From a bacterium (GTDB lineage: Bacteria > Zhuqueibacterota > Zhuqueibacteria > Oceanimicrobiales > Oceanimicrobiaceae), in NCBI GenBank assembly GCA_046757025.1, contig JBHHXN010000167.1, positions 1 through 11,249 of the forward strand: a stretch of 11,249 bases of DNA. Direction: 5' to 3'. Under the pieces are notes generated by a model. That model was not told the origin of the DNA and did not search any database. It was given only the letters and a program-made list of their open reading frames with translations. Both the position numbers and the translations under genes were made by a program. This document shows positions 1-11,249 of the stretch, piece by piece (position 1 is the first letter of the stretch; every line of letters starts with the position of its first letter).

Positions 1-129
1 AAAACAATTGATTACACAACTGCGAAACTTGAATTATTAAACAATCCCTGTCTATCATAGAAAGACAACTTTTTTCGATCTTTACTCCCCCAAAATATTC
101 AAAAGTTAAAAAAATTAAGTGTAATTTAT

Positions 130-158
130 AAGCTCCGCTTTTTGAAAAAGCTCGGCTT
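130..158. repeat. Imperfect palindrome downstream of the M23 gene (possible terminator or REP-like hairpin)
   Basis: AAGCTCCGCTTTTTGAAAAAGCTCGGCTT has a GCTTTTT/AAAAAGC inner stem and AAGC/GCTT outer arms. It lies about 50 nt past the minus-strand stop at 208. No clean U-tract follows it. Confidence 0.35.
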
Positions 159-207
159 GTTGTTATTGAAAATTTGTATTTTCCAAAAGCAGCAAGTCCC
201 CGACTCG

Positions 208-2370
208 CTACCGCATCAACAACATCTTTTTTGTCTGCAAAGACGATCCGGCCTGCATGCGATAAAGGTAGATACCGCTTGCTAAATTTTCAGCCATAAA
301 ATCCACCGAATACCTGCCAGCCGCTTGACGCTGGTGCACTAAGGTGGCCACTTCCCGGCCCAGCAAATCATACACTTTTAAACTCACGAAAGTGGGTTTG
401 TTAAGGGAATACGTGATGGTGGTGGTGGGATTGAACGGATTGGGATAATTTTGCAGTAAGGCAAATTGTTTCGCAGGTTGCGGCAAGGCGTGTTGCGCCG
501 CCACTGCCAGGGTGATGTCGCTGCCCTGGCGGTTTTTGGGATAGATATCAAACGCACGCAGGGCGAGGATGGCCGTTTCTTCACGGGTTAAATATCGCTG
601 CGGGCAAAATAATCTGGGCGCGGTGGCACACCCCAGGGCGATGCCCTCTTGCAGCAATTGATTGATCCAGTTGACCTGCGGGTGAGCAAGCGGTACGTCG
701 CCGAATATTTGCTCCGAAGCCGCGGGCGGCTGGTAGTCGCGGCCGTGCAGCGCCAGCAAAATAAACCTCGCCATTTCCGCCCGGGTCAACGAGTCGTCGG
801 GACAAAAGCGCGGCGGATTTTGAGCGCAGCCCACAGTGAGACTATCTGCGGCCAACTGTTCTATCCAGTCGGCAGCCGGATGCTTGACTGGTACATCATC
901 AAAAATCGCTCCGCTGGCGGCCGGCGGAACGAAATCGGCGCCGTGCAACCCTTTCACCCAAACCTCCGCCAATTCTGCCCGCGTCACCCTTTCTTTGGGA
1001 TAAAAAAAACGCGCATTCGAATTTTCCTGTGGTAGTGGCTCCATCAAACCGGCTGCGTAAACGGCGTCGATCCACGGTTTGGCCCAGTAGTCGTCGGCGA
1101 TGTCTTCGAAAAACTGTTTGCTGGCGGTTACCCGCGTCTGTCCGTCGCACAAAGGCCACAGTCGCGGCCCGGCAGCAGTGTGGACCATCATCGGACTCGG
1201 TCTGCGGGAACGCGAATCGAAATAGCGCGAAGCGCCGTTCACCCGAAACGACAGGTGCAAATGCGGGCCGGTGGAATTGCCGGTGCTGCCGACGGCGCCG
1301 ATCTGTGTGTTCGCTGAAACCGAATCGCCTTTGGCCACGGAAATGGCGCTGAGGTGAGCGTACAGGGTAGTGACGCCGTTTGGGTGCTGCACCGCCACAC
1401 GATTGCCGTAGCCTGTGGTGCGGTGCAATGCTACGACTACCTTGCCGGGCGCTACCGGAAACACGGGCTGTCCGAAATCGTTGGCGCCCACTAAATTCCA
1501 GTCGGTGGCGTAATAATCGTTGTTGTCGTTGGAATGCGTGACGTCGCCGTAATAGTAACCCACACCGCCTACCTGCCAGCGCGTGCCGCTCTTGAACGGC
1601 AGGTGCAGGGGGATGGGCGAATTGGCAACTTCGTTGCCCCAATCGCAGGGATGGATTTCTTGCAGATCGGTTTCTGGGTGCCCGAACACTGCTGTGGCAT
1701 CAAATTCAAACAACGGCGCTGGTGTTTCAGACGGCAGCGCGATGGTTTCTTGCCGGCTGAGCACAACTGAGCGCAAAAGATGCCGGGCCTCCGGCAGCAA
1801 CCAGGCGATTTCGGGCTGCGCGCTGAGCTGCAAAATCCGCCGGTTGGGCATGCGAAATAGATAGAGCGTCTGTGTTTTGGCTTGTGCATCTTTTAGCACG
1901 ATTTGCATGGGTTGGTGCGGGTGCTCCAAATTTTTTTGAATGGAAACCATTTGCAGAGCCCGGGTTTCGGACTGCCGCAGGAGCCAGGTTTCTAGATTCG
2001 AGTTGGGCGGTAGAGAATAAACGTCCGCCTGAATTTTTGCGGCGCCTGCGGGCCAGGCCTCAATCGTCTCGTCCACCGGGGGTTGGTAATTCATGAAGGT
2101 GGCGGAGGCAAAACTGCCAATGGTCGGAGTCGGGTAAACCGTCCAGTGACTGGGAACCGCCAGACCAAACTGGTGGCGGGCATCTCGGTAGGCCAGCCAT
2201 TTTGCGGGAGAAGCGGATCCCTGCCGTTGGTTCTGCAAAGAAGAATTTGATAGAGCATTCAAAAAGCTCGCCTCAAAAACGAGCAAACTTAAAAGCCATC
2301 CAATGCAAAAATAAAAATAATGGCAGACAGATTTACGATTCAACAAATAGTTCATAATCATACTCTCCAT
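208..2370 (-). CDS. Secreted M23-family zinc metallopeptidase with three SLH-like repeats and a T9SS/Por-type C-terminal sorting domain
   Basis: 720-aa ORF with a hydrophobic N-terminal segment. M23 motifs: YYATDW, GYGNRV, TLYAHLS, IGAVGSTGNSTGPHLHLS (about 1240-1615). Three F-x-D-[IV]...WI...[VL]TR-x-E SLH-like repeats (about 545-1113). C-terminus FALLQNYPNPFNPTTTITYSL...VYDLLGREVATLV...LASGIYLYRM...TKKMLLMR (about 211-465). Start uncertain (2370, 2361 or 2355). Confidence 0.9.
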   Translation of the reverse strand: MESMIMNYLLNRKSVCHYFYFCIGWLLSLLVFEASFLNALSNSSLQNQRQGSASPAKWLAYRDARHQFGLAVPSHWTVYPTPTIGSFASATFMNYQPPVDETIEAWPAGAAKIQADVYSLPPNSNLETWLLRQSETRALQMVSIQKNLEHPHQPMQIVLKDAQAKTQTLYLFRMPNRRILQLSAQPEIAWLLPEARHLLRSVVLSRQETIALPSETPAPLFEFDATAVFGHPETDLQEIHPCDWGNEVANSPIPLHLPFKSGTRWQVGGVGYYYGDVTHSNDNNDYYATDWNLVGANDFGQPVFPVAPGKVVVALHRTTGYGNRVAVQHPNGVTTLYAHLSAISVAKGDSVSANTQIGAVGSTGNSTGPHLHLSFRVNGASRYFDSRSRRPSPMMVHTAAGPRLWPLCDGQTRVTASKQFFEDIADDYWAKPWIDAVYAAGLMEPLPQENSNARFFYPKERVTRAELAEVWVKGLHGADFVPPAASGAIFDDVPVKHPAADWIEQLAADSLTVGCAQNPPRFCPDDSLTRAEMARFILLALHGRDYQPPAASEQIFGDVPLAHPQVNWINQLLQEGIALGCATAPRLFCPQRYLTREETAILALRAFDIYPKNRQGSDITLAVAAQHALPQPAKQFALLQNYPNPFNPTTTITYSLNKPTFVSLKVYDLLGREVATLVHQRQAAGRYSVDFMAENLASGIYLYRMQAGSSLQTKKMLLMR

Positions 2371-2485
2371 CGCGGTTGATTCATCTCAAATCTAATATTT
2401 TTTAAAAATAAATCCATTATTTTAAAAGTCACAAATTGAATAAAATAAAAGTGAAAATGCCACTTTTCACCAATTCTTACCTTTT

Positions 2486-2519
2486 TTGTCATACAATTGT
2501 AACATGAACAGGTTATTTT
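2486..2519 (+). promoter_or_regulatory. Pho-box-like direct repeat plus putative -10 element upstream of the porin
   Basis: TTGTCAT-ACAA-TTGTAAC (2486-2503) has an 11-bp period and resembles the E. coli Pho box CTGTCAT-N4-CTGTCA[C/T]. TATTTT (2514-2519) follows after 10 nt. The context is a phosphate-uptake cluster. Confidence 0.7.
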
Positions 2520-2603
2520 CTTAAAAATTTTTAAGAATTGATTTTCAAGAAATTGACCATTAAAATGAAAAAACACAAGGGGGTGAATTTTTAAAAAAAT
2601 GAC

Positions 2604-2627
2604 TGAGCGGTTTTTTGAGACGGCTCA
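2604..2627 (+). other. Imperfect hairpin in the predicted porin 5' leader
   Basis: TGAGCGGTTTTTTGAGACGGCTCA (TGAGC/GCTCA arms) followed by ATTTAATTTT. It is a GC-richer island within AT-rich intergenic DNA. Confidence 0.3.
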
Positions 2628-2762
2628 ATTTAATTTTCAAATTGCAAAATGAAAAATTTAAATTGGATAGAAAAACTACAGTTGGATTGTGCATTTTGCA
2701 ACCAGATAGCTAAATTTTGTTTTTTAACGGAATTAATTTTCAATTTTAATCTGGAGGATATT

Positions 2763-3860
2763 ATGAAAAACCTTTTTATTCGATTACTCGGTGCCGGACT
2801 TATTTTGTTCCTGACGATGGTAAGCAGTCCCGCACAGGAAGTCAAAACCAAAAACGCCAAAAGCTGGGAGCTCACAGGTAGAGCTCAGCTGCAATATTTT
2901 TACAACTCGGATATCGATGGCGACGCTTCGCGAACCAACAACGGCTTTCGTATCCGGCGCGGTCGTTTGCAGGCCAAATGTAAACTCACCGACTGGGTGG
3001 AAACCAAGTTTCAGATCGAAGTGCGCGATAACAGCCCACGCTTGAAAGACGCCGAAGGTAAAATCAAACTCGGAAAGAATATGTTTGTGCGCCTGGGACA
3101 GTTCAAAGTGCCGGTGTGGCGCGAGGAACTGCGCTCGTCGAGTAAACTGCTGCTGGTGGAGCGCAGCGAAGTTGCAGAAATGCTGGCGGACATCAATTTG
3201 TCCGCGCGACAGGTTGGTTTGGAAGTAGGCGGTAAAATGGCCAGCGGTTTGAGCTGGGCTGTAAACGTTTCCAACGGAGCCGGCGAAGGCGGACGTGAAG
3301 ACGCCGGTCGCAGCAAGAGTGGCTTTGTGAACAACGGAAAACTTTTTGCCGGCCGGGTGAATGTGCCTGTGGGCGATAAACTTCAAATTGGCGTAGCAGG
3401 AGCGGCTAACCGAGCTGGCAGTGACACCGGCGTTGCAGACAATTCTGGCACCATCTGGACCATTGCGCCTGATTTCGGCTATTACACATCGGCTGGCACA
3501 AATGGGCAGCTCGACCTGGAGGGGGGAATCGCTATCGGTAGTGTTGATAAAGACTTTTTGAGCACAGCGGAAGATCAGAAATTTAGATTGTTTGACGTCA
3601 CCGCCCGCTGGCATAAAAAGCTCAGCTCGGTGCGGGAAAATCTCGGCGGCGTCGATGCGGTAGAGCTGGCAGCGGGCATTTCGATCATCGAACCCAACTC
3701 CAACGTGGATGACGATGAATCGCTGTTTGTGCGCTTTGGTCCGGCGGTTTATTTTGGTAAAACCACGCGGTTGCAAGTGAACGGCGAAATAGAGAAACCT
3801 TTGGTTAGCGGTGGGGTTACGATTTTTAAATTTCGCGTGCAATCGACTTTTAATTTCTAA
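2763..3860 (+). CDS. Outer-membrane porin, phosphate-selective OprO/OprP-like
   Basis: ATG 2763 is preceded by GGAGG (2753-2757). The 365-aa product has a signal peptide (MKNLFIRLLGAGLILFLTMVSSPA), family-like motifs FRIRRGRL, LGQFKVP and VERS, amphipathic beta strands and a C-terminal Phe. It lies directly upstream of pstS. Confidence 0.82.
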   Translation: MKNLFIRLLGAGLILFLTMVSSPAQEVKTKNAKSWELTGRAQLQYFYNSDIDGDASRTNNGFRIRRGRLQAKCKLTDWVETKFQIEVRDNSPRLKDAEGKIKLGKNMFVRLGQFKVPVWREELRSSSKLLLVERSEVAEMLADINLSARQVGLEVGGKMASGLSWAVNVSNGAGEGGREDAGRSKSGFVNNGKLFAGRVNVPVGDKLQIGVAGAANRAGSDTGVADNSGTIWTIAPDFGYYTSAGTNGQLDLEGGIAIGSVDKDFLSTAEDQKFRLFDVTARWHKKLSSVRENLGGVDAVELAAGISIIEPNSNVDDDESLFVRFGPAVYFGKTTRLQVNGEIEKPLVSGGVTIFKFRVQSTFNF

Positions 3861-3881
3861 ATTTGCTAAAAAAACACAAAG

Positions 3882-3915
3882 TCGTAACCTCGTTGTAACA
3901 AAGCTATGTTATTTT
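3882..3915 (+). promoter_or_regulatory. Second Pho-box-like direct repeat plus putative -10 element upstream of pstS
   Basis: TCGTAAC-CTCG-TTGTAAC (3882-3899, 11-bp period), then 10 nt, then TATTTT (3910-3915). It shares TTGTAACA-N7-GTTATTTT exactly with 2497-2519. Confidence 0.7.
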
Positions 3916-4073
3916 GCAAGCATAAAAACAGGTACCGTGAGTGTCGCAGTTTGGCCGGATGAATGGAGACGCCAACAGGAAACAGAAATTAAGGTCTTTT
4001 AAGTTCTGCTGAATCTGGGTAGTCATGATTGCCATTAACTATGAACAAATTGAATTAAAATTGGAGGTTCAAA

Positions 4074-5084
4074 GTGAGAAATCAAATTCTCAAATGGACG
4101 GGCTTTTATTTAGCCATAACCGGTTTATTTTTTCTACTTTCTCCTGCCGCAAATGGTCTGGCGGGCGGAAAAGTGCAGGTCGATCCCAAAATTCCGGCCT
4201 ACAAAAAAGTCAGCGGCATTTCGGGCAGTTTAAACAGCATCGGTTCCGACACCATGAATAACCTCATGACGCTCTGGGGTGAAGGATTTGCCAAATACTA
4301 CCCAAACGTCAAACTGCAAGTGGAAGGCAAAGGCTCCAGCACGGCCCCGCCGGCTCTGATCGCGGGTACGGCGCAATTCGGTCCCATGTCGCGCAAAATG
4401 AAAGATAAAGAAATCGATGAATTCGAAAAGGTCTTTCATTACAAGCCCACGGCCGTGCGAACTTCGTTGGACGCACTGGCGGTGTACGTCAACAAAGACA
4501 ACCCCATCCAGGGTTTGAGCTTGCCGCAAGTGGACGCGATTTTTTCGAAGACTCGAGCTGGGGGTCTTGAAAAAGCCATCAATTCCTGGGGCGAAGTCGG
4601 TCTGACCGGCGTCTGGGCAAACAAACCCATCAGCCTTTTCGGCCGAAATTCGGCTTCCGGCACCTACGGGTATTTTAAGAAACACGCGCTTTTCAAAGGC
4701 GATTATAGAGACACGGTTAAGGAGCAGCCGGGTTCCGCATCCGTAGTGCAGGGGGTAAGCGAAGATCGCTATGGAATCGGTTACAGCGGCATCGGTTACA
4801 TCACCTCGGGCGTGCGCGCCGTGCCTTTGTCCAAGAAAAGTGACGGCCATTTTTATGACGCCGAGATGAAAAATGTCGTGTCGGGCAAATACCCGCTGGC
4901 GAGATTTTTGTATCTCTACGTCAACAAAGAACCAGGTAAAGAACTCGACCCGCTGGTGCGCGAATTTCTCAAATTTGTCTTCAGCAAAGAAGGTCAGGAA
5001 GTCGTGATCAAAGACGGTTATCTGCCTTTGCCATACAAAGTGGTGCAGGAAGAATTAGCGAAACTGGAAAACGGCACCAATTAA
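4074..5084 (+). CDS. pstS: Phosphate ABC transporter substrate-binding protein PstS
   Basis: GTG start with GGAGG at 4063-4067 and a signal peptide. Motifs GSDTM, EGKGSSTAPPAL, GPMSR, GRNSASGTYGYF, GIGYSGIG, YPLARFLYLYVN. Confidence 0.96.
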   Translation: MRNQILKWTGFYLAITGLFFLLSPAANGLAGGKVQVDPKIPAYKKVSGISGSLNSIGSDTMNNLMTLWGEGFAKYYPNVKLQVEGKGSSTAPPALIAGTAQFGPMSRKMKDKEIDEFEKVFHYKPTAVRTSLDALAVYVNKDNPIQGLSLPQVDAIFSKTRAGGLEKAINSWGEVGLTGVWANKPISLFGRNSASGTYGYFKKHALFKGDYRDTVKEQPGSASVVQGVSEDRYGIGYSGIGYITSGVRAVPLSKKSDGHFYDAEMKNVVSGKYPLARFLYLYVNKEPGKELDPLVREFLKFVFSKEGQEVVIKDGYLPLPYKVVQEELAKLENGTN

Positions 5085-5206
5085 TTTTCTAAAATGAGAA
5101 TTCGAGGAAGTTTTGGGATTACGCCGTATTTCATGAAGGCAGATGCGGACTTTCTGATGCAGCTATCCGATCCAAAATAATATGAAATGCAAAGAAAATT
5201 GAAAAA

Positions 5207-7504
5207 ATGACCATTGGGATTGAAGAACAAGAAATCGTCAAAAACCGACGCCTGCGTTTTGAGAGTGAATCGCGGTGGCGGTTAAAACGTCGGAAAATCA
5301 TCGACCGTACAGCTAAATGGGTAATCGGGGCCGGCGGTTTTGCCATCATTATCAGCATTCTGGCCATTCTCATTTTTATCAGTTTGGAAATCTGGCCGCT
5401 TTTTCAAGCTGCCAAAGTGCAGGAGAAAAGCCGTGTCCCGGTGTCAAATCTGGTGCAGGGGCTACCATTTAACACGGTAGCTTTTGGCTTGGATGAAAAT
5501 CAGGAAATCGGCTATTTGCTGTCCGATGACGGGCGACTGCAATTTTTCGATGCTATCAACCGTCGGGCGCGCGAACAATTTGACATTGCCACCGTTCACG
5601 GCGAGGTGATTACCTCGGTCTGGCAATCCTTAAATGGCAAACATTTAATGCTTGGCACCAATCGCGGTAGGGCGTTGGAGCTGAAAATTGATTTCAACAC
5701 CCGTTTTTTTGACGGCAAGCGCAGTTACCAGCCGAGGGTGACACCCGTCGAACTGTTGCATCTGGATGCTGCGGGTCGGGCCATCAAAGTCCTGGTTTTT
5801 GCTCACGACGAAGATGGCTCCAAAGCGCTGGCCGGCATCACCGAAGACCACAGGGTGGAGTTATTTTTGTTGACCAAAGAGGAGTCGCTTTTTGGCGACG
5901 CCGAAATCGACTCCGCGCGTTTCGAGCTGGAGGCCATCTGGTCGGACAATCCCCGCTCTCTGGCGTTGGACCGACCCTCGGGCAATCTTTACCTGGGCAC
6001 CAGCGACGGCAAAATTTACCACTGGAAAATTTCGTTGGAGAGCGGCGCCGAATTTGTCAGCGTGGCAAAAGCCGCGGAGCCGGGCACAGGAGTCGGCGCG
6101 CTGCAATTTTTGATCGGCAACCGCACCCTGATGGTTGGCGACAGCCAGGGTCATCTCAGCGCCTGGTTTCTGGTGCGAGACAGCACCGCAGCCACGGGGC
6201 GCCGGCTGCGGAAAATTCGGCAGATGCAGCCTCTGTCTGACTCGGTGACGGCCCTGGCTGCGTCGGCGCGCGGCAAAGGCTTTATCGCCGGCGACTCCGG
6301 GGGTGAGCTATCGCTGCAATATTCGACTTCCGAACGTACCTTGGCGCGATTTAATAACGGTAATCAAAGTCAAATTGTGCTGATCAATTACGCGCCAAAG
6401 AGCAACGGAGCGCTGACTCTGGACAGCCGCGGTACGTTGACGCACTGGCAAATCCACAATCCGCATCCCGAAGCCGGCTTGAAGGCGTTTTTTGGTAAGG
6501 TCTGGTATGAGGGCTACGACCAGCCCGAATACGTCTGGCAGTCCACGGGCGGCAGCGATGAATTCGAGCCCAAGCTCAGTCTGGTGCCGTTGATTTTCGG
6601 CAGTTTAAAAGGCACGCTTTATGCGCTCATCATCGCGGTGCCGCTGGCGATTTTGGGTGCGCTTTATACTTCGCAATTCATGCACCCGCTATTTCGGAGT
6701 TATGTTAAACCGGCTGTAGAAATCATGGCCGCCCTGCCGAGTGTGGTGTTAGGTTTTCTGGCGGGTCTCTGGCTGGCGCCCATTATCGAGGATATTGTGC
6801 CGGGTATTTTGAGCATGGCAGTGGGGCTGCCGCTAATGATTTTGCTGACTACTCTGCTCTGGACACGCGTGCCGCAATCCCTTCGGGGACGCTTTCGGCC
6901 CGGCATCGAGAGTTTGTTGTTGCTGCCGGTGCTGTTGCTGGGTATCTGGTTCTGTTTGAGTTTAAGCCATTTATTTGAGTCGGCCCTTTTTGCCGGCGAT
7001 TTCAAACATTGGCTGCGGCAGACCCTGAATTTACCGTTTGACCAACGCAACGCCCTGGTGGTGGGTTTTGCCATGGGATTTGCGGTGATTCCGATCATCT
7101 ACACTATTTCGGAAGACGCCCTCTCCAATGTCCCGCAAAATTTGATTTCAGGATCCCTGGCGCTGGGAGCCAGCCGCTGGCAAACCGCGGTGCGGGTGGT
7201 GATTCCCACCGCCGCGGCGGGGATTTTTTCCGCGGTTATGATCGGCTTTGGGCGCGCAGTGGGTGAAACCATGATCGTGCTCATGGCCACCGGCAACACG
7301 CCGATCATGGATTGGAACATTTTCAACGGTTTCCGCACGCTGTCGGCCAACATCGCGGTGGAAATTCCCGAAGCGCCGGTTGGAGGTTCCCTTTACCGGG
7401 TGTTGTTTCTGGCGGCTATGCTGCTGTTTGTCATCACGTTTTTGGTGAATACCCTGGCAGAAATGGTGCGGCAGAAATTGCGTGAGAAGTACCAAAAACT
7501 GTAA
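5207..7504 (+). CDS. pstC: Phosphate ABC transporter permease PstC, long form with a large extracytoplasmic beta-rich domain
   Basis: 765 aa: N-terminal TM helix, about 390-aa soluble domain, then permease core (LVPLIFGSLKGT, EIMAALPSVVLG, SEDALSNVP...GSLALGASRWQT EAA loop, GRAVGETMIVLMATGN). Position between pstS and pstA. Confidence 0.93.
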   Translation: MTIGIEEQEIVKNRRLRFESESRWRLKRRKIIDRTAKWVIGAGGFAIIISILAILIFISLEIWPLFQAAKVQEKSRVPVSNLVQGLPFNTVAFGLDENQEIGYLLSDDGRLQFFDAINRRAREQFDIATVHGEVITSVWQSLNGKHLMLGTNRGRALELKIDFNTRFFDGKRSYQPRVTPVELLHLDAAGRAIKVLVFAHDEDGSKALAGITEDHRVELFLLTKEESLFGDAEIDSARFELEAIWSDNPRSLALDRPSGNLYLGTSDGKIYHWKISLESGAEFVSVAKAAEPGTGVGALQFLIGNRTLMVGDSQGHLSAWFLVRDSTAATGRRLRKIRQMQPLSDSVTALAASARGKGFIAGDSGGELSLQYSTSERTLARFNNGNQSQIVLINYAPKSNGALTLDSRGTLTHWQIHNPHPEAGLKAFFGKVWYEGYDQPEYVWQSTGGSDEFEPKLSLVPLIFGSLKGTLYALIIAVPLAILGALYTSQFMHPLFRSYVKPAVEIMAALPSVVLGFLAGLWLAPIIEDIVPGILSMAVGLPLMILLTTLLWTRVPQSLRGRFRPGIESLLLLPVLLLGIWFCLSLSHLFESALFAGDFKHWLRQTLNLPFDQRNALVVGFAMGFAVIPIIYTISEDALSNVPQNLISGSLALGASRWQTAVRVVIPTAAAGIFSAVMIGFGRAVGETMIVLMATGNTPIMDWNIFNGFRTLSANIAVEIPEAPVGGSLYRVLFLAAMLLFVITFLVNTLAEMVRQKLREKYQKL

Positions 7505-7554
7505 AGAGTTTTTTAAACTTAATGCTTTTTAAATGTAGCTATTCAGCAAAGGGT

Positions 7555-7582
7555 TGTCATTCCTGCGACTGCAGGAATCTCC
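7555..7582. repeat. GTC-tagged REP-like palindrome
   Basis: TGTC-ATTCCTGC-GACT-GCAGGAAT-CTCC has a perfect 8-bp stem and 4-nt loop. It lies just downstream of the minus-strand GIY-YIG remnant. Confidence 0.85.
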
Positions 7583-7594
7583 TCGAGCATCCAT

Positions 7595-7692
7595 TTAAAC
7601 TAATTCAGTTTACAAGTCTTTCCATTTTGGATTCATTTGTAAAGTACCTTTTATTGTTTGTTTGCTATCCTGTACACGCAGTATGTTGCCAT
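7595..7692 (-). pseudogene. Internally deleted remnant of a small GIY-YIG (YhbQ/UPF0213-like) nuclease gene
   Basis: Manual translation: 7692-7639 gives MATYCVYRIANKQ*KVLY, resembling the family N-terminus (YxVYIxANxxNxVLY). Out of frame, 7636-7595 gives MNPKWKDL*TELV*, resembling the C-terminal NPxWxDLY motif. The catalytic middle is missing. Confidence 0.72.
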
Positions 7693-7820
7693 AATTACTC
7701 TACCTGGAGAGGTTTTTACTTGATGAATGATACGAATTCTTTATTGAATTCTTGCCATTGCGTTGGGAGGGGGCTGTCCAAAAAGTCGTGTTTCTTCACT
7801 CTGAGAGGAGTTGATAGGTG

Positions 7821-8003
7821 TACGGCTATCCAGTTAGCTCAGCAAACTTCCAGAATGGTCATTCTGAGCGATCCCGCTCAGCGGGAGAGCGAAGAATCTC
7901 ATGCTACTGAGCTTGATTGAATGAATAAAGTTTGGTGGTCTGAGATTCTTCATTCGCTTCGCTCCTTCAGAATGACATTTTCTGAGTAAATTGGATAACC
8001 GTA
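7821..8003. mobile_element. TA-bounded 183-bp TIR element (inner layer)
   Basis: TACGGCTATCCAGTTAGCTCAG (7821-7842) vs CTGAGTAAATTGGATAACCGTA (7982-8003) is an 18/22 inverted match. TA at both ends is what IS630/Tc1-type TA duplication would leave. Confidence 0.68.
7858..7976. repeat. Inverted doublet of GTC-tagged REP-like palindromes (REPIN-like)
   Basis: GTCATTCTGA...GAAGAATCTCA (7858-7901, with internal hairpin TCCCGCT/AGCGGGA) faces TGAGATTCTTC...TCAGAATGAC (7941-7976) across a 39-nt spacer. Confidence 0.85.
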
Positions 8004-8153
8004 TGATGGGTGTTGTAAGTTGACTAAAAACAGACATGCATTACTGAATTTACTTCGGGACTCAGCATGAAGTTGTGTGTAAATTGGGACTTTTTGGACT
8101 GCTCCGACACCTGAATAGTTATTTTTAAATAGATTAAACTAATTATTTTATCT

Positions 8154-9782
8154 ATGAAAAATTATTGGAAAAGCGGTGAACCGTTTGTTTGGCTGACCGG
8201 CGGCGCGTTGGCGCTAAACGTGCTGATGATAATGGGTCTGATTCTGCTGATTTTGGTGAACGGTCTTGGGCAATTCTGGCCAGAGGATTTAATCGAGCTG
8301 CATTTGAAAAATGGGCAGAAAGTCCTCGGAGAAATCTGGGACCGGGAACGGGCGCCGCAGTCCGAAGAATCTTCATTCGACGAAGTCCACCATCGTTTGC
8401 GGTTGAAAATCGGTAACCGCGATATGTATGGTCTGGATTTCAAGTGGATCGATGAAGCAAACATCCACGGACGCTTACAGCCGGTGGGCGCCATTGCGGT
8501 GGAAAGAATGGAATGGGGCAACTTTTACGGTTACTTCGAGTCGCTGCAGGTGGATGGGCAAATCATTGCCACCGACTTAAATGCCGGCTGGCCGCAGTTA
8601 ATGCAGCGTCTTTCTGAGGCGCACGCGCTGCGGGAAAAAATCGTCCATCTGGAAAAAAATGAAATTGGCGATATCAACTACGACCTGGAAAGTCTGCGTT
8701 TGAAGATACGCAAACGGAATACGCGCTACGATACCACCGGCGTGCGCGCGCAAGTGGCTGCTATCCATGATGAGATAGAGTCGTTAAAAGCTTTGTATCA
8801 TGAAAGAGAAACCGAGCTCAACGCCTTGTATGAACTCGCTGGTAAATCCGTTTTAAAATTGCGGACGGTGGAGGGATTGGAAAGCGAGATCAAATTGCTG
8901 GATGTGGTGAGAATTTACCGCCCCAACAAAATGGGGCTTCTGAGTAAGTCGGCGGCTTACCTGAGCAAAACCTGGGAATTTGTAAGCGGCGAACCGCGTG
9001 AATCGAATACCGAAGGCGGCATTTTTCCGGCGATCTTTGGCACGGTGATGCTGGTGATCATCATGAGCATTGCAGTGGTGCCCCTGGGAGTGCTGGCGGC
9101 GATTTATTTGCGTGAATACGCCAAACAGGGGTGGTGGGTGCGGGCCATCCGCATCGCAGTCAACAACCTTGCCGGCGTGCCTTCCATCGTGTACGGGGTG
9201 TTTGGACTGGGATTTTTCATCTATGCTATCGGCGGTACCATCGATCATCTCTTTTATTCCGAAGCGTTGCCCACACCTACTTTTGGCACCGGCGGCATTT
9301 TGTGGGCTTCGTTAACTCTGGCACTGATGACGGTGCCGGTGGTGATCGTGGCCACCGAAGAAGGTCTGGCTGCGGTGCCGCGGGAGATTCGAGAAGGTTC
9401 GATGGCGCTGGCCGCCACCAAATTCGAAACGCTGTGGCGGATTGTGATTCCCAGCGCCATGCCCGGCATTCTCACCGGCCTGATTCTGGCGATTGCCCGG
9501 GCCGCGGGCGAAGTGGCTCCCCTGATGATCACTGGCGTTGTGAAGTTGGCGCCTTCGCTGCCGCTGGACGGCCATTTCCCGTTCATCCATCTGGAGCGAA
9601 AATTTATGCATCTGGGATTCCACATTTACGACGTCGGCTTTCAGTCGCCAAATGTGGAAGCCGCCATCCCCATGGTGTATTCCACAACATTGCTGTTGCT
9701 GCTCATCGTAATTTTACTCAATGTGGTAGCGATTTATGTGCGAAATCGACTGCGCCGAAAATTAACACACGCGGTTTTTTAG
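8154..9782 (+). CDS. pstA: Phosphate ABC transporter permease PstA, long form with an extracytoplasmic helical insertion
   Basis: 542 aa. Motifs PRESNTEGGIFPAIFGT, AAIYLREYA, NNLAGVPSIVYGVFGLGFF, TEEGLAAVP...EGSMALAATKFET, ARAAGEVAPL. Confidence 0.95.
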   Translation: MKNYWKSGEPFVWLTGGALALNVLMIMGLILLILVNGLGQFWPEDLIELHLKNGQKVLGEIWDRERAPQSEESSFDEVHHRLRLKIGNRDMYGLDFKWIDEANIHGRLQPVGAIAVERMEWGNFYGYFESLQVDGQIIATDLNAGWPQLMQRLSEAHALREKIVHLEKNEIGDINYDLESLRLKIRKRNTRYDTTGVRAQVAAIHDEIESLKALYHERETELNALYELAGKSVLKLRTVEGLESEIKLLDVVRIYRPNKMGLLSKSAAYLSKTWEFVSGEPRESNTEGGIFPAIFGTVMLVIIMSIAVVPLGVLAAIYLREYAKQGWWVRAIRIAVNNLAGVPSIVYGVFGLGFFIYAIGGTIDHLFYSEALPTPTFGTGGILWASLTLALMTVPVVIVATEEGLAAVPREIREGSMALAATKFETLWRIVIPSAMPGILTGLILAIARAAGEVAPLMITGVVKLAPSLPLDGHFPFIHLERKFMHLGFHIYDVGFQSPNVEAAIPMVYSTTLLLLLIVILLNVVAIYVRNRLRRKLTHAVF

Positions 9783-9869
9783 TGGACAGCTAAAATCAGT
9801 TGCAGCGCTATTTTTAAATCGTAAATTATGCTTAGAAATTGTCTTGAAATTGATGGAGAGAAATTGAAA

Positions 9870-10727
9870 ATGAATGAAGCGGTCGCGAAATTATCAAACA
9901 GCTCCAGGGCCACACGGGCTCGTGAGCTAGCACTGAATACCAGCCAAAAATCAAAACCGCTGCGTACTTTTGTGTATCCAGCCGTGAGAGTGGAAGATTT
10001 GTTTTTCAGTTACGGCGAGGGCTGGGCCTTAAAGGAGATCAATCTGGAAATTCCCCGACGACAAGTAACGGCCTTCATCGGGCCCTCCGGCTGCGGCAAA
10101 AGTACGCTGCTACGGACTTTCAATCGATTGAATGATTTGATTGACCGGGCGAGAATAGAGGGCAAAATATTCATCGACGGCCAGGATATCTACGACCCTG
10201 GCGTGGACGTAACCGATCTGCGCAAACGCGTGGGCATGGTATTTCAGAAGTCGAACCCATTCCCCAAATCCATCTACGAAAACGTCGCTTACGGTCCGCG
10301 CATTCTGGGGATCAAGAAAAAAGCGGCGCTGGATGACATTGTGGAGAAAAGCCTGAAAAGCGCGGCCCTCTGGGACGAAGTGCACGATCGGCTCAGCGAA
10401 AGCGCCCTGAGCTTGTCTGGCGGTCAGCAGCAACGCTTGTGCATTGCACGCACCATCGCGGTGGAGCCGGAAATCGTGCTGATGGACGAGCCGTGCTCGG
10501 CGCTGGACCCCATCGCCACCGCCAAAATCGAAGAGCTGATTCTAAAGTTAAAAACCAATTACACCATCGTCATCGTGACGCACAACATGCAGCAGGCTGC
10601 GCGCATTTCGGATTTCACCGCTTATCTGTGGCTGGGGCAGCTCATCGAGTTTGACGTCACCGACAAAATTTTCACCAACCCCAGTGAAAAATTGACCGAA
10701 GATTACATCACCGGTCGTTTTGGATAA
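9870..10727 (+). CDS. pstB: Phosphate ABC transporter ATP-binding protein PstB
   Basis: Walker [21 protein letters not shown], signature LSGGQQQR, Walker [17 protein letters not shown], and C-terminal DYITGRFG. Start 9870 is preferred because of GGAG at 9855-9858; the ORF is open from 9828. Confidence 0.97.
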
Positions 10728-10826
10728 TGCGGTTGATTGCGAGAATCGTTCATTGTGAGCTACTTTCAAGGTTTGCTGGGGCCAGTACCAAAAAGAAAAA
10801 GCCCGTCCAGCGTAAATAAAATTTGC

Positions 10827-11071
10827 GTTACTATTCAGGTATCACTCATGCGAATGTTGGCGTCTCCCGATTCAAAGAACATAAGCCCGAGAAGAATTCT
10901 CATGCGTCAAGCAAGTAAAGACATGTCCAGGTAGAGGAATTATGCAACCCCAAAATGCGTACAAACCGTGCAAGCTTCAGGACACAAAATCGATAGCGCT
11001 CAAAAACTTTTATGGCTTTCAGTTTTGTGTCCAAATTTACTTGTCTGTTTGAGGTGAAGCTTTGCTAATAG
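10827..11071 (+). mobile_element. Strongly degenerate, oppositely oriented relative of the 7535-8122 element
   Basis: Collinear blocks shared with the minus strand of 7535-8122: ACTATTCAGGT[A/G]TC; CTCCC-N23-AAGAATTC; CAAGTAAA-N6-TCCAGGTAGAG[G/T]AATTATG (last block 18/19, 10926-10944 vs 7708-7690). A probable right end is CTTTGCT-AATAG (11060-11071). The right boundary is uncertain and no direct repeat is seen. Confidence 0.62.
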
Positions 11072-11200
11072 AGCGATTCTTAATTATGGTTGAAATCCCG
11101 TTTTTTGTGCGGAAGCATCCTTTAGTCTAGTCTCAAAGGAAAATCTGGACTCTTGGTAATGAAAAAAATGATAATATGGAACAGGACACAAGTTTAAATA

Positions 11201-11249
11201 GTGATTGACCGAAAAGTCCATATTTCTTCACCCTGAGCCCTTCGACAAG
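11201..11249 (+). mobile_element. Left end of a second member of the 7770-8105 element family with the start of a REP-like repeat (truncated by window edge)
   Basis: GTGATTGACCGAAAAGTCCATATTTCTTCACCCTGAG (11201-11237) aligns to 7770-7805 at 28/37 positions. It continues into CCCTTCGACAAG, typical of CTGAG...CTTCGAC-type palindromic repeats. Confidence 0.6.

Follow-up and report, generated by a model that had tools for sequence, protein, structure and literature searches.

Palindromic targets are described across the IS1182 family in the accessible text of PMC5678879 and PMC4923244, and the member nearest to the case analysed here is IS1272/TnSha1 of Staphylococcus. According to the available part of PMC5678879, IS1272 replaces inverted repeats of 22, 24 and 30 bp without target duplication, and the inverted repeats lost in ten GN copies measure 21–38 bp. 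What is termed there a potential mechanism has the element joined to the 3' feet of a cruciform, the stem–loops being lost to exonucleases. The accessible part of PMC4923244, which places IS1272 in the IS1182 family, describes hairpins as targets from which part of the stem is deleted. For this mode the terms 'inverted-repeat-replacing' and 'stem-loop-replacing' transposition are in use (PMC5678879; PMC4923244). Insertion sites of ISCbo5/ISBma2-type IS1182 elements are inverted repeats that form hairpins at gene ends; the hairpin surrounds the insertion and target loss is not reported in the available text (PMC3098183), whereas the target of the element described below is lost. Still other members duplicate the loop or the whole stem–loop (pathways b and c in Fig. 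13 of PMC5678879, as far as accessible, citing Siguier et al.); these have family and hairpin target in common with our element, but they duplicate where it deletes. Nothing on hairpin replacement was found in the accessible parts of PMC3196728 and bioRxiv 10.1101/2025.07.22.666184, and a search of the main texts of mostly open literature returned no report of replacement by a MITE or at a REP target, only the two IS1272 papers.

The window is a stretch of 11,249 nt (GCA_046757025.1, contig JBHHXN010000167.1, positions 1 to 11,249 of the forward strand; C167 in our contig labels) from an uncultured bacterium (GTDB lineage Bacteria; Zhuqueibacterota; Zhuqueibacteria; Oceanimicrobiales; Oceanimicrobiaceae), the genome assembly of which (G000) is 94.8% complete in 374 contigs. 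The source microbe occurs in hydrothermal-vent metagenomes too. A repeat in this window, the middle one of three nested layers, resembles IS1272 in that there is no target duplication and an inverted repeat of variable sequence is lost, in that its ends start with G[AG]GGCTG, and in that the transposase of a Paenibacillus element with such ends (L040) is related to an IS1272-type protein (38% identity). It differs from IS1272 in being a non-coding MITE in an uncultured host, with its cognate transposase not found in the assembly, and in its targets, which are REP-like hairpins of 17–21 nt inside other repeats. Members of the IS110 and IS3 families also use REPs as landing sites; these belong to other transposase families than the middle element and are not known to remove the whole hairpin.

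Results

A nest of three repeats between pstC and pstA

The contig carries pstS, pstC, pstA and pstB. Two phosphate ABC permease genes, pstC upstream (5207..7504, plus strand; TIGR02138 above cut-off) and pstA downstream (8154..9782, plus strand; TIGR00974 above cut-off), are separated by a gap that holds the outer, middle and inner repeat layers. We note that in pstC an N-terminal extension of about 450 amino acids, beta-propeller-like by eye, precedes the permease domain. On the minus strand, 208–2370 encodes a protein of 720 amino acids that looks secreted; it has a stretch resembling peptidase M23, repeats like those of S-layer homology domains and, at its C terminus, a tail like a sorting domain, all labels given by eye.

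The outer (host) repeat (7536..8121), delimited by repeat comparison, is bounded by inverted repeats reading TARCTATTCAG, and a REP-like hairpin lies near each end. A broken GIY-YIG gene is contained in sister copies of greater length (PF01541 above cut-off within copies on C28, C129, C337 and C109), and in C129:9743-10203 and C28:34308-34768 this gene is bracketed by the REP-like hairpins. Outer-element copies are often flanked G|...|C, and TARCTATTCAG ends also bracket other interiors (C3, C13, C271).

The middle element (7770..8105) was delimited by inverted-repeat detection and a shared core as a 336-bp non-autonomous IS1182-type MITE. It is composed of a core of about 145 bp, common to copies of 133–167 bp on C4, C10, C24, C80, C120 and C264, together with the nested 183-bp inner element and the duplication made by that element. 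Its terminal inverted repeats, found by inverted-repeat detection and end comparison, are GGGGCTGTCCAAAAAGTC on the left (7770..7787, plus strand) and GGAGCAGTCCAAAAAGTC, read inward, on the right (8088..8105, minus strand); the arms are 18 bp each and 89% complementary. The sole open reading frame inside it is 67 amino acids long. The end type is multicopy, with 18 two-ended copies of 122–397 bp, differing in their flanks, across the genome. On the evidence of these ends we class the middle element as a MITE with IS1182-family ends. A single miRNA match in an Rfam scan fell below threshold (23 bits, with the cut-off at 245) and was rejected. The end of the contig (11200–11249) falls within one more decayed end of the middle-element family.

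The inner element (7821..8003; 183 bp), recognized by its target duplication and by copy comparison, belongs to a different MITE family. Its 9-bp target duplication (7812–7820 and 8004–8012) matches at 8 of 9 positions, and genome-wide 17 of the 21 two-ended copies of this family have 8–9 of 9 matching. The inner layer, with its ordinary 9-bp duplication, is thus a control within the nest. Inner MITE ends read TACGG(C/T)TATCCAGTT, and on C46, C73, C107 and C288 this MITE sits at the same place in the middle-element core.

The middle element stands in place of a 20-nt hairpin

Comparison of filled and empty copies identified GGGAG (7765..7769, plus strand), the bases before the hairpin in empty copies, as the left target remnant, and GACACCTGAATAGTTA (8106..8121, plus strand) as the right target remnant together with the right terminus of the outer element. 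The flank to the left of the middle element ends GGGAG and the flank to the right starts GACACCTGAATAG; read on the minus strand, the junctions are ...GGTGTC-[element]-CTCCC. This is as the original prediction had them, and its central claim, that a 20-nt stem–loop is missing with no target duplication, is borne out; the longest direct repeat at the junctions is 1 nt. The intact hairpin near the left end of the outer element (7555..7582, plus strand; 8-bp stem and 4-nt loop, -7.8 kcal/mol with DNA parameters) also reads as quoted in that prediction. So does the sister offered as the empty site (10830–10868), but repeat comparison and folding show this outer-element end (10829..10868, plus strand) to be a decayed copy, its hairpin in place with 4 mismatches from the consensus and a folding energy of -0.3 kcal/mol. 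Better empty sites are found on C90, C129, C28 and C259, where the gap is exactly 20 nt and the hairpin has an 8-bp stem and a 4-nt loop (-8.2 kcal/mol).

Contigs from four Logan runs (X1–X4), which come from one study and are possibly the source samples, cross the left junction (X1–X3) and the right junction (X1–X4) with 0 differences. Among the matches listed there was no joint skipping the middle element and no empty allele; since Logan contigs drop rare variants, this is no proof of fixation. At 10857–10858, in the sister hairpin, X3 and X4 read CA, the consensus, whereas the window, X1 and X2 read TT, so the sister hairpin is polymorphic between samples.

A genome search with the outer right terminus gave 200 raw matches, of which 21 were kept on hairpin likeness, an abutting TIR or an upstream anchor. 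The 20-nt hairpin is present at 17 of these, the middle-element TIR directly abuts the host end at three (C167, C186 and C124) and one is unrelated. Joined hairpin-less host ends were sought and none occurred in repeat context, nor did any of the 21 filtered ends lack the hairpin without holding an element. The hairpin is thus absent solely where an element stands. At C124:7553 just one side has a TIR adjoining a host-repeat-like terminus, and a search for the partner end was negative; this is a possible third replacement in the outer-element family.

Hairpin loss recurs at other sites in the genome

A weight matrix found 23 end pairs in the genome, 22 after removal of a nested duplicate: 18 of GGGGCTGTCC type and four of GAGACTGTCG type. 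Both flanks of each pair were aligned to paralogous empty sites, which was possible for 5 of the 22; the other 17 had no empty site. The empty sites are paralogues or come from other species and are not the ancestral allele, and within one genome the sites that can be compared are the repeat-borne, hairpin-rich ones only. In 40 relative genomes related MITEs were present, with no orthologous empty site.

Four of the five pairs have lost a hairpin of 17–21 nt, symmetric within 1 nt, and the fifth has lost 33 nt from a hairpin foot. The loss is exactly 20 nt at C167. At C186 a different element of 122 bp, in a different host cassette, has removed the same hairpin plus one base (21 nt). A second REP-like family is the target at C46 and C264, with 17 nt lost from each; at C264 the loss is one base less than the inner stem–loop of 18 nt. 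In this family, which has 17 intact copies, the lower stem GTT|AAC is left behind. C10 involves a third family, and the 33 nt lost there run from the foot of the inner stem to a point 13 nt beyond it. A single end on C288 likewise adjoins a stem of this kind. An inverted repeat has therefore gone from 5/5 testable genome copies (four symmetrically, one asymmetrically) as well as at the L040/L171 pair described below, and the loss without duplication that was predicted from the window recurs at independent sites. The prediction that the cuts fall at the hairpin feet holds at C167 and fails for the second family, which loses the inner 17–18 nt only while GTT|AAC stays.

To place these figures against chance, a 20–21-nt window was moved along three intact host repeats and enclosed a terminal stem of at least 6 bp at 6/489, 6/883 and 3/231 positions, or 0.7–1.3% per event within a repeat; for random genomic 17–21-mers the figure was 327/200,000 (0.16%). 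The targets, three unrelated repeat families and a terminator-like hairpin, have no primary-sequence consensus, and base counts over 52 flanking ends show a mild T bias only. Losses span 17 to 35 nt, and a fixed-length 'ruler' model was rejected for this reason.

Two-ended copies have flanks that are inverted rather than direct. Direct repeats of at least 3 nt occur at 1 of the 18 genome copies of this end type (C4), against 0.61 in shuffled flanks, so the ordinary short duplications that would have contradicted the original prediction are at chance level. Inverted flanks with at least three complementary bases occur at 5/18, against 1.28 shuffled (p 0.002). Among 44 two-ended copies drawn from 124 GTDB loci, with partner ends called automatically and related genomes that are not independent, inverted flanks of at least 3 were found in 11 against 2.89 shuffled (reached in 0 of 5000 shuffles) and direct repeats of at least 3 in one against 1.77 shuffled.

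The proposal that GTC|element|CTCC would be a general junction signature failed. A metagenome scan for GTC followed by the TIR gave 51 loci, 17 of them with a partner end (several doubtful, with 3 mismatches), and 0 of these 17 had CTC on the right. The same scan yielded two full-length IS1182 elements. In viral contigs, a scan for the junction (11 loci) and one for the end motif (8 loci) gave nothing beyond chance or coding matches except L015, a short two-ended copy; no transposase was among them.

The same ends flank IS1182 transposases elsewhere

The first 16 nt of the middle element are 1–3 mismatches from the ends of full-length L040, L089, L027 and L146, and the same ends flank elements of 1.72–1.83 kb in Paenibacillaceae (L027, L040, L089), in the same class as the source genome (L146) and in metagenomes (L200, L210). 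The five that were scanned (L040, L089, L146, L200 and L210) pass the NF033551 IS1182 cut-off, and the L040 and L089 proteins carry DUF772 and DDE_Tnp_1_6; the kinship with IS1182 guessed from the window is thereby supported. In a tree of 17 proteins, a small hand-picked set rooted at the midpoint, the same-end transposases group with a staphylococcal IS1182 and ISBf3 at 100/100 and stand apart from the clade with GAGACTGTCG-type ends. An origin from ISNCY (NF033593) found no support for ends of this type: the genome has two sub-cut-off matches without these ends nearby, and the proteins between these ends score 60–66 bits against a cut-off of 325.

The identity of the cognate transposase, also sought, was not recovered from the source assembly: PF05598, PF13751 and the L040 protein gave 0 matches, and NF033551 gave 3 weak matches only (best E 1.1e-4). 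In consequence, the link to IS1182 is made through end sequence alone. As the assembly is fragmented, the cell may nevertheless have the gene; a MITE can also persist after its transposase has gone.

L040 is inserted between GAAA and TTTTT; at this place L171, the orthologous locus, has a 35-nt G+C-rich terminator-like hairpin between convergent genes, with flanks 89–91% identical to those of the L040 locus. L040 is, from this filled/empty comparison, an autonomous element that has replaced a longer hairpin. A hairpin in L250 has its 5' foot at the position of the left L089 junction, while the right flank of L089 has no homology to L250. L146 and L200 have inverted flanks of 5 and 10 bp respectively.

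IS1272 itself was considered and rejected, as no more than 9–10 of 16 end positions are shared with the IS1272-type ends of L291 and the middle element has no transposase. An IS1272-type plasmid copy, to which the two published primers each fit with 1 mismatch, encodes a 548-amino-acid protein 38% identical to that of L040 and has ends GAGGCTGGGACATAAA, with GAGGCTG shared. Judged by its ends, the middle element belongs to the IS1182 family and acts like IS1272, but is not IS1272.

The clade with GAGACTGTCG-type ends is also IS1182. Its members L152 and L163 have 3-bp direct repeats, as do 3/4 GAGAC-type MITEs in the source genome, in both cases from the flanks alone. Copies of the sister end type GAGACTGTCGAAAAAG on C15:27626-27756, C16:2434-2564, C60:25587-25717 and C18:27265-27382 have the 3-bp direct repeats AAC/GTT beside CTAAC-like sites, and L152:1210-3020 is a full-length example of this end type. 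These CTAAC-like sites are presumably similar to integron attC sites in their inverse core.

Discussion

The replacement of a hairpin by the middle element is real and recurrent, was rightly interpreted in the original prediction, and its mechanism has already been described. The original prediction called it an unusual integration outcome; it is unusual but not new, as both the outcome and the cruciform-foot model have been published for IS1272 (PMC5678879; PMC4923244). We consider it highly probable that an IS1182 transposase drove hairpin replacement, whether by transfer to the feet or by prior excision. Within this, strand transfer at the 3' feet of a cruciform is the explanation that we favour and think probable, with the chemistry itself being inferred. 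We propose that the palindrome would extrude as a cruciform and that each 3'-OH of the element would attack the 3' side of a stem, one on each strand ('negative stagger'). Two hairpins would remain as flaps for host nucleases to remove and the nicks would be sealed, so that the element ends up where the hairpin had been. On this view it is the four-way junction, rather than a sequence motif or a fixed length, that sets the cut point; the junction may have rested at a mismatch at C167 and at an AT-to-GC step inside the stem elsewhere. Where the base of the palindrome is AT-rich the cut falls inside the stem, which would be consistent with partial extrusion. Counting against this explanation are the negative search for the cognate transposase, the 17 elements with no empty site, the right flank of L089, the asymmetry of C10, the one-base offsets at C186 and C264 and the 3-nt direct repeat at C4.

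Sequence alone fits both transfer to the feet and prior excision, in which an IS1182 transposase or a host junction-cutting nuclease would excise the stem–loop first and the element would be joined into a blunt gap. The product would be identical, the variable cut heights at C46, C264 and C10 fit nuclease trimming, and the authors of PMC4923244, in the part available, interpret their junctions as blunt cuts. We regard prior excision as unlikely even so, because the junctions are symmetric within 1 nt in 4/5 genome pairs and at L040, with little of the raggedness expected of free ends. In DDE enzymes, target cutting and joining are one transesterification, a chemistry that also speaks against a separate excision. 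The accessible part of PMC5678879 likewise argues for a single step.

Another possibility is an ordinary insertion in or beside the hairpin, which was later deleted by slippage, by hairpin nucleases or by an adjacent deletion. The asymmetry of C10, the 3-nt direct repeat at C4 and the age of the copies, which are old and mutated, are on its side. It is largely refuted and we hold it to be improbable: no host end among the 21 lacks its hairpin without an element and there is no joined scar in repeat context, which means that such hairpins do not disappear by themselves. In addition, no half-hairpin remains at C167, C186, C46 or L040, the C167 junctions have no microhomology, and symmetric endpoints would be expected in about 1% of events. 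More improbable still is that a REP-associated HUH (Y1) transposase, or the GIY-YIG nuclease of the host element, cut the hairpin and the MITE was captured in repair. The targets in the source genome are REP-like, a Y1 transposase is above cut-off there, and GIY-YIG genes are present, some within host-element copies; but the outcome is the same at a Paenibacillus terminator-like hairpin with a full IS1182 element and at three unrelated repeat families in the source genome, and the junctions coincide with the TIR termini of the element. An assembly chimera of two repeat families, conceivable given three nested repeat families in a fragmented assembly and with none of the Logan contigs listed spanning the whole middle element, is the least probable of all, as contigs from 3 and 4 runs tie the junctions, with 0 differences, to unique sequence of pstC or pstA and these genes flank the nest in order.

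In the literature found, this mode of insertion had been documented only for staphylococcal IS1272, and it is extended here to MITEs and to distant bacteria. What is added is the use of the mode by non-autonomous MITEs, at REP-like targets and in a distant uncultured lineage, together with cuts inside stems, exact cut positions, which the clean filled/empty pairs fix, and the presence in this genome of a sister IS1182 clade that shows 3-bp duplications instead. Hairpin-replacing insertions leave no duplication and so are missed by element finders that depend on one; they also delete terminators or REP hairpins permanently. The L040 and L146 transposases, which come from non-pathogenic hosts and for which targets are known, make the chemistry testable.

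Perhaps, and we put this forward tentatively as somewhat less than an even prospect, hairpin replacement is the default mode of a large cross-phylum IS1182 clade with G[AG]GGCTG ends and of its MITEs, while the sister clade duplicates 3 bp. If this is true, the clade would extend over Bacillota, Bacteroidota and uncultured lineages, and its transposase would read a cruciform by its four-way junction, thereby erasing REP elements and terminators irreversibly, while in the same genomes the sister clade (GAGACTGTCG ends) would make ordinary 3-bp duplications at TAAC sites. Such a pair of clades would be suited to finding what makes a DDE enzyme a structure-guided replacement tool.
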